Positions 53,401-56,400 of a stretch of DNA of 64,000 bases are shown here, one piece after another. Position 1 is the stretch's first letter. Each line of letters starts with the position of its first letter. The stretch is from Escherichia coli. Its GTDB lineage: Bacteria; Pseudomonadota; Gammaproteobacteria; Enterobacterales; Enterobacteriaceae. The position numbers are program-made. The DNA lies in NCBI RefSeq assembly GCF_045037415.1, contig NZ_CP173438.1, one strand, 5' to 3'.

Positions 53401-56400
53401 TGTAAGAAGCTGGTCGCATCGGGTATTCATTGCCTGATGCGACGCTTTCGCGTCTTATCATGCCTACATAGCTCATGCAATATATTGAATTTGCATGCTT
53501 TTGTAGGTCGGATAAAGCGTTCACGCCGCATCCGGCAATGTGCACCATGCGTTGGATGCGGCGCGAGCGCCTTATCCTACCTACGGATGGCACTGGTTTC
53601 CTCATTCACCCAGATCCGCATTTCGCCTTCACCCCGGTTGGCCCAGCTAAACCACGGGATAAACGTCAGAATTTGCGGCTGGCGTTTGGCTGGCGCGCTG
53701 TCGTAATGCCACAGCGGTTGCTGCTCTGGATTGCTCTGTTCATACCGGTAACCCGGTGCCTGGATTAAGATCTTATGGCGGAACAATCCATTACCTTCAA
53801 ATGTCGTAAATGGCGCATCGGCGGGCAGCCACAGATTATGCAGTGACTCGCCGTTGTCGACCTGTTCCAGACAATACACCAGCGGGCCGCGCTGAATCGC
53901 CACTTTTCCGGCGACGTGACGCACCAGCGGGTTACCGTAAACGCGACGTACCGGCATTGGCAAAGTCAGATTCAGCGTGTCGCCCTCCTGCCATTCACGG
54001 GTAATGTGCAAATACCCTTTACGAATATCCTGCTCGACCTCTTCCCCATTCAATATGATCTGCGGCTGTATGCACCAGTCCGGTAGACGTAAAGCCAGCG
54101 TATGACGCACCGGCTGGGGTGATTCAACCGCAATCGTCACCTGTTCCTGCCACGGATAGTTTCCGCTAACCCGCAGGCGCAGCGTGCCATTTTCTACCGG
54201 CACCTCCATGCTGTTTCCTGCGTAGATGTTGATATACAACGCATCTTCACGCGGCGTGTAGAGATAATGACCAATCGAGGTTAGCACGCGGGCGATATTT
54301 GGCGGACAACAAGCGCAGCCAAACCAACGCTGGCGGATCGGCTTAACGTGATCGTAGATATGGTTGAATTTCAGCGATTTTGGATGTACTTCCAGCGGAT
54401 TCACATAGAAGAAATGTTTGCCATCCAGCGCCATGCCGCCGAGCACGGTGTTGTACAGTGCGCGCTCCATCACATCGGCATATTGACTGTCGCCTTCCAT
54501 TTCCAGCATTCGTCGGGCAAACATCATCAGGCCGATGGAGGCGCAACTTTCAGCGTATACCGTGTCATTCGGCAGATCGTAATCGCTGCTGAACGCTTCA
54601 CCGCTGCTCTGTGAGCCAATGCCGCCGGTAATATATAACTGACGCTGGGCCATATTGTTCCACAGCCGCAGGCAGTCCTGACGCTTGCTTTCATCGTGAC
54701 TTAAACGCGCGAGATGCGCGACGCCGGTCATCAGGTAGACAAAACGTACCGCGTGACCAATGGCGGTTTGCTGCTGTGCGATGGGCAAATGTGCCTGGCT
54801 GTAGGCTTTGTCTTTCACCATCCACGCCGGGCCGTAGGTGTGCCAGTGCGAGGTCTGCCCGCGCTTTTCATATTCCTGGTCGTAATAGTGCGGTTGCGCA
54901 CCACGCTGTTCGACAAAATAGTTCGTCAGCGCCAGGTAGCGCGGCTCTTCGGTCACTTCATACAGGCGCATTAGTGCCAGTTCAATTTCCGGGTGACCAG
55001 GATAACCATGTAACTTACTTTCATCTGGACCAAATACGCTGTCGATATGATCGGTCAGACGGCAAACCACTTCCAGCAAGCGCCGCTTGCCCGTAGCCTG
55101 GAAGAAGGCGACTCCGGCTTCAATCAGATGACCGGCGCAGTAAAGTTCATGACACTCCGCCAGATTGCTCCAGCGTTCTTCGGGCGCTTTTACCGTAAAG
55201 TAAGTATTGAGATAGCCATCTTCGCACTGGGCGGAAGCGATCAGTTCAATCACCTCGTCGGCGGTTTTTTCCAGTTCGGCGTCCGGCTTCTGGCACAGCG
55301 ACCAGGCTACCGCTTCCAGCCATTTGGCGACGTCGCTGTCCTGAAACACCATCCCGTAAAATTCACCCTCCTGAAGTCCGGCGGCAATGCGAAAGTTTTC
55401 AATCGCATGGCTGGGTTCCGCTTCTGGGATACGATCGTTCAAGGCATCCCACTGATAAGGAATCACCACGTCGCGGACCAGTTGTTGGTACTGACCGAGG
55501 AACGGATCGCTGACCGTCAGTTTATGCAGATCGACTTCCGAAATGTTCATCTTGTGCTCCTTAAGGCTGTACATGACGCTGACGCAGGTCGCTAGCAATG
55601 CGTGACATCATAGGGTTATTGAGTTTGCAAAAGCGGATCGCCATCGCCAGCAGCAGGTGGAACAGCGCAGGCAGCAATGTTTCCATCGCCGCGATCCCGC
55701 CAAGCGAACTGGCGGTCTGGTTTTCCACGCCTGGCTGGTAGGCGACAAAAATAAACAGCAGGCTGATGATCCCGGCGCTGGAGGCCCAGGCCAGCTTGAT
55801 GAAAAACAGATTGAAGGCGAAGTTCATGCCGGAAGAACGTACGCGGGTTTTCCACTCGCCGTAGTCATCGGCAAAGGCCATCAATGAGAAGTGCAGTGGC
55901 AATGTGAAGCCAAGAATCACGCCATTACCGAGGATCACCACCAGCCACAGCGTTTGATAAGCCGGGCTGGAGGGCAGGAACCACATCAACACCGCCAGTG
56001 CAGCGAGGAGCAGGTTGGTGTAGTAGTAAATTTTGACGGTATCGAAACGCCGCGTTAATGGGCTGACAATCACCGAGCCGATAATGGAGGCGAAGGTGAC
56101 CATGGTGAAGAACAGCGACGTGTAGCCCGTACTGCCTTGTAAGACGTAGGTAATGAAGTACATATACCCACCGCCGCGAATATTAAAGACGTTAATCAGC
56201 AGGAAAGACATGACCAGCATCAGCAGCAGTTGGTCGTTGTTCCGCAGCCCGGCAAGATGTTCGCGCAGGGTAAATTTCCCCATTGTGGAGAGTGGCACCC
56301 GTTCACGAACCCAGAAGAAACAGCACAGGAACATCACCACGGCAATGGCGCACAATACGCCGACGCCAAGTTGATAGCCGCGTGCAGCGTTGCCCTGACC

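Follow-up and report, generated by a model that had tools for sequence, protein, structure and literature searches.

We have analysed the junction between aldB and a convergent gene for a GH127-family glycoside hydrolase in a 64,000-nucleotide stretch of Escherichia coli DNA (contig NZ_CP173438.1, hereafter the window), where a cluster of repetitive extragenic palindromes (REPs) lies between the two genes. The cluster marks a joint at which the window lineage probably lost the genes yiaWVUT through recombination between REPs. The genes of the window run in the order cysE, trmL, lldDRP, a YadA-like adhesin gene, a DUF3251 gene, yibL, mtlRDA, yibIH, yibF, selAB, yiaY and a Fic gene, followed by aldB, the GH127 gene, a gene for a transporter of the major facilitator superfamily (MFS), an AraC-family regulator gene, sgbE/araD, sgbU, sgbH, lyxK, yiaO and yiaN. 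A 5.5-kb query taken from the window was 100% identical to strain 20AR0479 and to many others, including O25b:H4-ST131 strains.

E. coli REPs, of y, z1 and z2 types, are imperfect palindromes some 35 nt long with a GTAG/CTAC end; they occur in many copies and mostly outside genes, 3' of them. REPs were located by a Hamming-distance scan for the consensus GCCKGATGCGRCGY-N-RCGYCTTATCMGGCCTAC, in which at most 6-7 mismatches were allowed. With up to 6 mismatches, seven units were found across the window and none in each of 20 Markov-shuffled windows; a looser threshold adds the unit after cysE. Three units, with 1, 2 and 4 mismatches to the consensus, lie between aldB and the GH127 gene, bearing out the preliminary description of this sequence, which had placed a REP cluster at 53412-53588. 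A bacterial interspersed mosaic element (BIME) of the BIME-1 class consists of one z1 and one y REP in opposite orientation, with a conserved long L linker between them (PMC3333891). The first two units, REP1 (z1, plus strand) and the inverted unit iREP2 (y, minus strand), flank an L linker in just this way, and are followed by a short head-to-head linker and a third, degenerate unit, REPb (Table 1). The whole is a real, ordinary E. coli REP/BIME cluster. Over 123 nt, the BIME-1 shares 86% identity with copies of this element at other places in each E. coli genome, and a 151-nt query matches at least 26-74 places per genome. REP1, which nearly all E. coli have downstream of aldB, and iREP2 are extragenic and lie between the convergent genes, while REPb overlaps the last 8 nt of the GH127 open reading frame (ORF).

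The L linker matches the Rfam ES036/CssrF model at 53460-53502 (40.7 bits against a gathering score of 37.6) and contains a putative binding site for integration host factor (IHF), a pattern match to WATCAANNNNTTR with one mismatch (ATTCAATATATTG, 53478-53490, minus strand). RNA folds of 53398-53600 are far more stable than those of shuffled sequences (z = -9.0 for the plus strand and -7.9 for the minus strand). In the minimum free energy (MFE) fold, the first hairpin 3' of the aldB stop codon joins the REP1 head with a partial inverted REP-head fragment, and the presence of this fragment explains the start at 53412 in the preliminary description. A long hairpin is formed by iREP2 and REPb. 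In the cluster, the naRNA4/REP325 model (RF02564) remained below its gathering threshold of 59.5 bits, with scores of 56.2 bits for that hairpin and 52.5 bits besides, and it matched weakly at 53394-53464. A promoter and terminator scan of 53300-53700 gave no match.

Table 1. Features of the aldB-GH127 junction and other REP sites, in coordinates of the window
Feature	Position	Strand	Basis and remarks
aldB coding sequence, aldehyde dehydrogenase B	51862..53400	+	RefSeq annotation of a 100%-identical genome and ORF list; convergent with GH127
Partial inverted REP-head fragment (GGTCGCATCGGGT)	53413..53425 (about)		Sequence and MFE fold; pairs with REP1 head
REP1, z1 type (GCCTGATGCGACGC...CATGCCTAC)	53432..53467	+	Consensus scan, 1 mismatch
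L linker of BIME-1, 35 nt	53468..53502		IHF pattern and Rfam ES036/CssrF
iREP2, y type, crossover interval of the joint	53503..53536	-	Consensus scan, 2 mismatches
Head-to-head linker (AATGTGCACCATGC)	53537..53550		Homologous to the iREPa-REPb linker of the yiaT-GH127 spacer
REPb, degenerate y-like REP (third unit)	53551..53584	+	Consensus scan, 4 mismatches
GH127-family glycoside hydrolase gene	53577..55550	-	Complete 657-aa ORF; annotated by the NCBI pipeline (PGAP) as 'frameshifted', 53581-55550
MFS_2 sugar transporter gene	55561..56961	-	Annotation and domain search; same operon as GH127, upstream
AraC-family regulator gene	57187..58002	+	Annotation and domain search; divergent from MFS-GH127
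Degenerate REP-like unit, single, cysE/trmL	27900..27932	+	6 mismatches
BIME, lldP to YadA-like adhesin gene	32379..32464		Consensus scan; y REP 32379-32412 (+), 23-nt linker, short z2 iREP 32436-32464 (-)
Three-unit BIME, mtlD to mtlA	40799..40934		Consensus scan; inside a conserved operon

The 3' end of the GH127 gene is supplied by the cluster. The ORF runs on the minus strand from an ATG at 55550 to a TAG at 53577-53579 without internal stops, and it contains all three Pfam domains, catalytic, middle and C-terminal, of the beta-L-arabinofuranosidase-like family GH127, PF07944 (375 bits), PF20736 and PF20737, the last of which ends at residue 649. Aligned over 651 aa with the intact 656-aa protein found in other E. 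coli, it shows 98% identity, the tail alone being different. The TAG comes from the GTAG/CTAC tail of REPb, a unit that holds the stop and the last 1.7 codons (to 53584); the preliminary description had thus rightly placed the stop inside a REP, but the codons that go with it are two, encoding RR, and not about four. The tail reads TSAIRR-stop in the window. Where yiaWVUT is still in place (the full arrangement described below), it reads KHCHP-stop, the TAG coming from the REP's own GTAG. A mutated GTAG gives KHCHPEVG-stop; where a hicAB cassette lies next to the gene, REPb has been deleted and the tail is TSA-stop, with a stop from the head of the neighbouring inverted unit, iREPa. The tail shifts with each REP rearrangement because the stop codon comes from the adjacent REP. 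In Citrobacter, Klebsiella, Salmonella and Enterobacter, the protein ends at WVNE[EQRG]-stop and a REP-like unit lies 10-15 nt downstream. The Escherichia tail is therefore a short, unstable extension past the C-terminus kept in other enterobacteria (...RIWVNEE) that ends at a stop in the adjacent REP. We also considered the gene as a true pseudogene and rejected this, since the ORF is complete, all domains are present, and the last 5-6 residues alone differ, beyond the last Pfam domain. The one window-type record examined comes from a genome identical to the window, and its 'frameshifted' call, which stems from the variable tail beside the REP, is probably an artefact of annotation.

Five main arrangements between aldB and sgbE were told apart when 5426 complete E. 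coli genomes were searched for each specific junction. The full arrangement, aldB-BIME-yiaW-yiaV-yiaU-yiaT-iREPa-REPb-GH127-MFS-AraC-sgbE, is present in 1254 genomes, a number that takes in O157, in which yiaK-S is additionally missing. The K-12 type (2461 genomes) retains yiaWVUT and has only remnants of the GH127 and AraC genes. The window type, aldB-BIME-1-REPb-GH127-MFS-AraC-sgbE, occurs in 566 genomes, ST131 strains among them; here the 3.8-kb yiaW-yiaV-yiaU-yiaT block is missing between aldB and GH127, and the window holds no trace of the hicAB cassette that other lineages carry at this place. That cassette characterizes the fourth arrangement (aldB-hicAB-GH127..., 506 genomes), with a rarer form in which aldB is followed by a restriction-endonuclease-like gene, hicAB and then GH127. 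In the fifth (481 genomes, including APEC O1), aldB adjoins sgbE directly (aldB|sgbE).

Remnants of hicB outside the fourth arrangement indicate that the hicAB toxin-antitoxin cassette was once present in the K-12-type, full-arrangement and APEC O1-type lineages. About 100 nt of the hicB 3' end lie upstream of yiaW in the full and K-12-type arrangements (locus L002, 3261-3361; the same in K-12 and in locus L004), and the 46-nt aldB|sgbE spacer of the APEC O1 type holds 24 nt of it (locus L003, 3510-3533). The aldB|sgbE form derives from the form with the restriction-endonuclease-like gene and hicAB by deletions without REP involvement. An exact abutment of the hicB remnant and the aldB-side inverted REP in the full arrangement was rejected, as 37 unmatched nt lie between them. 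Strain 24AR0376, which carries aldB, the restriction-endonuclease-like gene, hicAB and GH127, was considered as closely related to the window lineage; this was likewise rejected, since the 3' end of its aldB is only 95.3% identical.

The preliminary description had treated the hydrolase genes as an accessory module, a view that the comparison with other species does not uphold. In a synteny survey of Enterobacteriaceae, with one genome per species, AraC-MFS-GH127 was found in dozens of genera with sgbE on one side and yiaT, hicAB, aldB or selB on the other. Several Citrobacter species have the order lyxK-sgbHUE-AraC-MFS-GH127-yiaTUVW-aldB-yiaY-selB, which is that of the full arrangement. In this survey, Citrobacter also has the most similar GH127 outside Escherichia (88%), with vertical-looking identities for yiaT (72%), yiaV (87%) and aldB (97%). 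Between the E. coli arrangements, the module is 97-98% identical, which is typical of the species, and it is about 91% identical to that of E. whittamii. At least 80% of the query was covered in 2311 of the 5426 genomes, and the module is absent from 57%. In the K-12-type genomes, two deletions have left remnants of 189 bp for GH127 and 102 bp for AraC; their joints are at GGCTGG-type microhomology and within GH127/AraC and do not lie in REPs. There is no REP on the sgbE side of the module. Syntenic outgroups, typical divergence and remnants in K-12-type genomes are not what a horizontally gained module would leave; the module is ancestral and was repeatedly lost. The changeable part of the locus is the gap between GH127 and aldB, occupied by yiaWVUT or hicAB. 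Across Enterobacteriaceae (loci L010-L089, about 11950-16000), the gap from GH127 to aldB or selB holds hicAB, a restriction-endonuclease-like gene, yiaTU, yiaTUVW or nothing, and it is a long-lived variable spot with small cassettes in varying order. In E. whittamii (locus L011, 12106-17515), GH127 and its REPs are followed by a DUF3829 - TPR - HSP90-like ATPase trio, fdhD and a formate dehydrogenase subunit gene instead of yiaT or aldB, possibly a rearrangement.

The joint in the window was placed by comparison with the other arrangements. Homology on the aldB side, seen in thousands of genomes, reaches the final base of REP1 (53467) and goes no further, and homology on the GH127 side, to the yiaT-GH127 spacer, begins at 53501-53537, the former position being two bases before iREP2. 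The window-specific segment has both of its edges exactly at REP unit boundaries, 53467/53468 and 53536/53537. Within it, iREP2 stands where the z1 unit iREPa follows yiaT in the full arrangement; it is identical at 31 of 34 positions to the aldB-side inverted REP of that arrangement and at only 27 of 37 to iREPa, yet downstream it is followed by the same flank as on the yiaT side (AATGTGCACC). From the anatomy, synteny, counts and breakpoint positions, which are observed, we infer REP-to-REP recombination as the route of loss. A parent like the full arrangement would have lost yiaWVUT through recombination of two like-oriented REPs, the inverted y REP on the aldB side and its inverted counterpart behind yiaT. 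They would have crossed over close to the REP head, where the two share CGCATC-GGC, and the L linker would call for a second BIME change. Taken as a whole, with the cluster, the ancestral module and the loss of yiaWVUT by REP-to-REP recombination at the window joint, we consider this reading probable.

Several points weigh against it. At this locus, the L linker occurs in window-type genomes only, so that the joint is not a one-step deletion from any sampled arrangement: the aldB side reads z1-S-y in the full and K-12-type arrangements, with an S linker of 12 nt, as against z1-L-y in the window, and at least one further BIME change is required. An intermediate with both the L linker and yiaWVUT was sought in the 5426 genomes and none was found, the approximately 571 genomes that match the aldB-L-iREP stretch at 90% or more being essentially the window-type set. 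The unit iREP2 could stem from any y REP, because it has no derived substitutions in common with the aldB-side inverted REP of other genomes. The polarity of the yiaWVUT change depends on the Citrobacter synteny, and GH127 directly adjoins aldB in Salmonella diarizonae, Klebsiella indica and Enterobacter cloacae. Some coincidence of REPs with joints is to be expected because REPs and tolerated deletion endpoints are both limited to intergenic DNA, and the majority of gene-content breakpoints in the window make no use of REPs.

An alternative is that the REPs at the joint are not causal: yiaWVUT or hicAB would have been lost by an unrelated deletion, through microhomology or replication error, and the REPs would reflect coincidence or later BIME turnover. 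Other deletions at this locus do use short non-REP microhomology (GGCTGG in K-12, an AAG-type joint in the aldB|sgbE form), and BIMEs change unaided, as in the copy number between mtlD and mtlA and the collapsed lldP spacer of strain HS (see below). A REP lies 3' of GH127 in many genera, whatever lies beyond it, and the locus-specific L linker demands an extra BIME event in any case. Against this, both edges of the window-specific segment fall exactly on REP boundaries, and the locus holds more breakpoints inside REPs: the hicAB arrangement keeps the first 26 nt of REP1 and an iREPa without the GTAG end, and its deletion of REPb stops within the iREPa head. We regard non-causal REPs as unlikely, though deserving of some weight.

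It is very improbable that the window arrangement, aldB-BIME-GH127, is instead an ancestral empty site into which yiaWVUT, hicAB and the restriction-endonuclease-like gene were later inserted between REPs. Such a site is suggested by the three species named above and by Pseudescherichia vulneris, in which GH127 adjoins aldB with REP-like units between them, and by the different cassettes found in the gap in different genera. Citrobacter, with the GH127 most similar to that of Escherichia and vertical-looking identities of the neighbouring genes, nevertheless has the full yiaTUVW arrangement, and the window arrangement looks recent because it is at least 99% identical in nearly all of the 566 genomes. 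The cassette-bearing forms, moreover, are not simple insertions into the window state, since the insertion-side REP is z1 in all of them and y in the window.

A REP-associated tyrosine transposase (TnpA-REP/RAYT) might have cut and rejoined the BIMEs, removing the genes or installing the L-iREP unit. The enzyme cleaves and strand-transfers BIMEs in vitro and has been proposed as a source of BIME variability (PMC3333891). Two breakpoints do lie at GTAG/CTAC ends, that at the REP1 tail (53467) and that of the K-12 adhesin deletion just past a GTAG, but the crossover proposed for the window joint lies near the REP head, and a RAYT is not known to delete flanking genes in vivo. ST131, whose strains carry the window arrangement, is generally placed in B2. 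The strains reported to be without tnpA-REP all belong to the B2 clade (PMC3333891), and we consider action of the transposase here very improbable. A broader proposal, to which we give a similarly small chance, is that the GH127-aldB gap is a long-lived cassette-exchange site in Enterobacteriaceae, its flanking REPs/BIMEs being real recombination substrates, perhaps via the REP-associated transposase. Were this so, hicAB, the restriction-endonuclease-like gene, yiaTU and yiaVW would have been swapped between an inverted REP pair, and the gap would be more than a mere tolerant spot. Finally, a gain of AraC-MFS-GH127 by this lineage as an accessory module bounded by REP-rich spacers is hardly credible, for although more than half of the genomes are without the module and a REP cluster lies on its aldB side, it occupies the same position across Enterobacteriaceae with species-typical divergence, the module-free genomes hold GH127/AraC deletion remnants or derive from the hicAB-bearing form by deletion, and the sgbE side has no REP.

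The preliminary description had proposed that REP-rich intergenic sites acted as recombination boundaries for accessory gene gain or loss. The whole window was aligned to the corresponding regions of K-12, O157:H7 and APEC O1, and all indels of at least 40 bp were listed. By our own count against these three genomes, about 3 of about 20 breakpoints lie at REPs, namely both ends of the yiaWVUT difference and one end of the K-12 adhesin deletion, and about 17 have no REP nearby. In this comparison, a REP was found at neither end of the waa core replacement, yibB, the rhs element between yibH and yibF, the Fic gene, the K-12 module deletions, the APEC O1 aldB|sgbE joint, which lies 29 nt short of REP1, or the O157 yiaK-S loss. 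The proportion is above the expectation from the tiny REP share of the sequence, but the number of events is small, and spacers are the only place for REPs and tolerated endpoints alike. The proposal thus holds for the aldB-side joint and the left end of the K-12 adhesin deletion and fails for the rest; downstream of aldB itself, the edges of the window joint fall on REP boundaries, while the K-12 module deletions and the APEC O1 joint fall outside REPs. REPs are unstable, and deletions sometimes end in them, but they are not general boundaries of accessory DNA in the window.

Details of four of the differences from the reference genomes are as follows. The Fic-family gene between yiaY and aldB (50381-51749) is absent from K-12 and strain 1579, and its boundaries repeat TTTTTGAGATA / TATCTCAAAA motifs, which are not REPs. 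Both the window (44979-45012) and APEC O1 are without the rhs element that K-12 (8.2 kb) and O157 (6.5 kb) have between yibH and yibF, and the kbl-rfaD site of the window (16910-16972) lacks 1.3 kb, including yibB, that K-12 and O157 carry; no REPs were seen at either site. In the trmL-lldD spacer (28444-28460 of the window; 38498-38694 of locus L092), K-12 and O157 carry an extra 153-165 bp of GC-rich CCCTCTCCC...GGGAGAGGG palindromes that the window is without. An Rfam search of the extra K-12 element gave no match. The palindromes may be box C repeats, which they resemble.

Of the two further junctions at which the preliminary description had reported REP clusters, the one between the adhesin gene and lldP was confirmed as a BIME with a y REP and a short z2 unit. 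K-12-type genomes have a deletion of the adhesin and DUF3251/SadB-like genes, the left end of which lies at 32437-32440, 1-4 nt inside the z2 iREP and just past its GTAG; the right end is not at a REP. The segment concerned (32495-37562) encodes a YadA-like adhesin of the EhaG/UpaG type and a DUF3251/SadB-like lipoprotein, and most E. coli carry strongly divergent alleles of it (59-79% coverage, 86-91% identity). In strain HS, the lldP-adhesin spacer (locus L091, 760-800) shows an internal rearrangement of the BIME, which has collapsed to a 26-nt perfect palindrome, GCCTGATGCGCGTAGCGCATCAGGCA, made up of two REP heads. After cysE, by contrast with the cluster reported, there is one degenerate unit, and the order cysE-REP-trmL is contiguous in 5283 of the 5426 complete genomes, so that this is not an accessory junction. 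The one rare exception examined is an insertion, in strain N73 (locus L090, 4230-8227), of a Mu-like prophage with Mor, Gam and gp16 genes at the cysE 3' end, where it alters the last cysE codons. The largest other cluster of the window, between mtlD and mtlA, was absent from the preliminary description. Its copy number varies (window 40791-40996): the window has three units, K-12 is 103 bp shorter, and O157 is without the whole 204-bp block.

The analysis corrects the reading of the locus. In enterobacteria, the module has long stood next to the yiaK-S operon; many E. coli, including K-12, have lost it, and window-type genomes such as those of ST131 strains lack yiaWVUT instead of the module. 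The window joint adds one more natural example to the known link between REP/BIMEs and rearrangement endpoints, and most of the gene gain and loss in the same 64 kb proceeded without REPs. All of the features fall within known REP/BIME biology and are of a kind already described, and the significance is small beyond bookkeeping.

In the Gilson/Bachellier classification (as given in PMC3333891), 53432-53536 has the make-up of a BIME-1 (RIP/RIB element), in single copy and tail-to-tail, with a 35-nt L linker and an IHF-like site. It differs in the third, degenerate REP added head-to-head and overlapping a coding sequence by 8 nt, and in that other E. coli have a z1-S-y element, not z1-L-y, at this locus. 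With regard to Rfam, the L linker exceeds the gathering score of ES036/CssrF (RF02751), whereas the iREP2/REPb hairpin is like naRNA4/CssrE, derived from REP325, but falls below its score; both models describe generic BIME parts. REP sequences were reportedly found by Shyamala, Schneider and Ames in 1990 at the join-points of tandem duplications in Salmonella. As in such REP-mediated rearrangements, the endpoints in the window lie inside intergenic REP units. REPs are also targets of IS1397 and IS621 (PMC1525189; PMC3184786). The event at the window joint differs from these rearrangements in being a natural, fixed 3.8-kb gene loss in one lineage, with no insertion sequence at the joint and a mechanism that we infer. 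Small repeats can also extend or replace the 3' ends of genes (PMC3184786), and the GH127 gene resembles such cases in that its last codons and stop come from a REP and its tail differs by REP arrangement; here, however, the change is confined to 3-8 residues past the last Pfam domain and implies no new domain or function.

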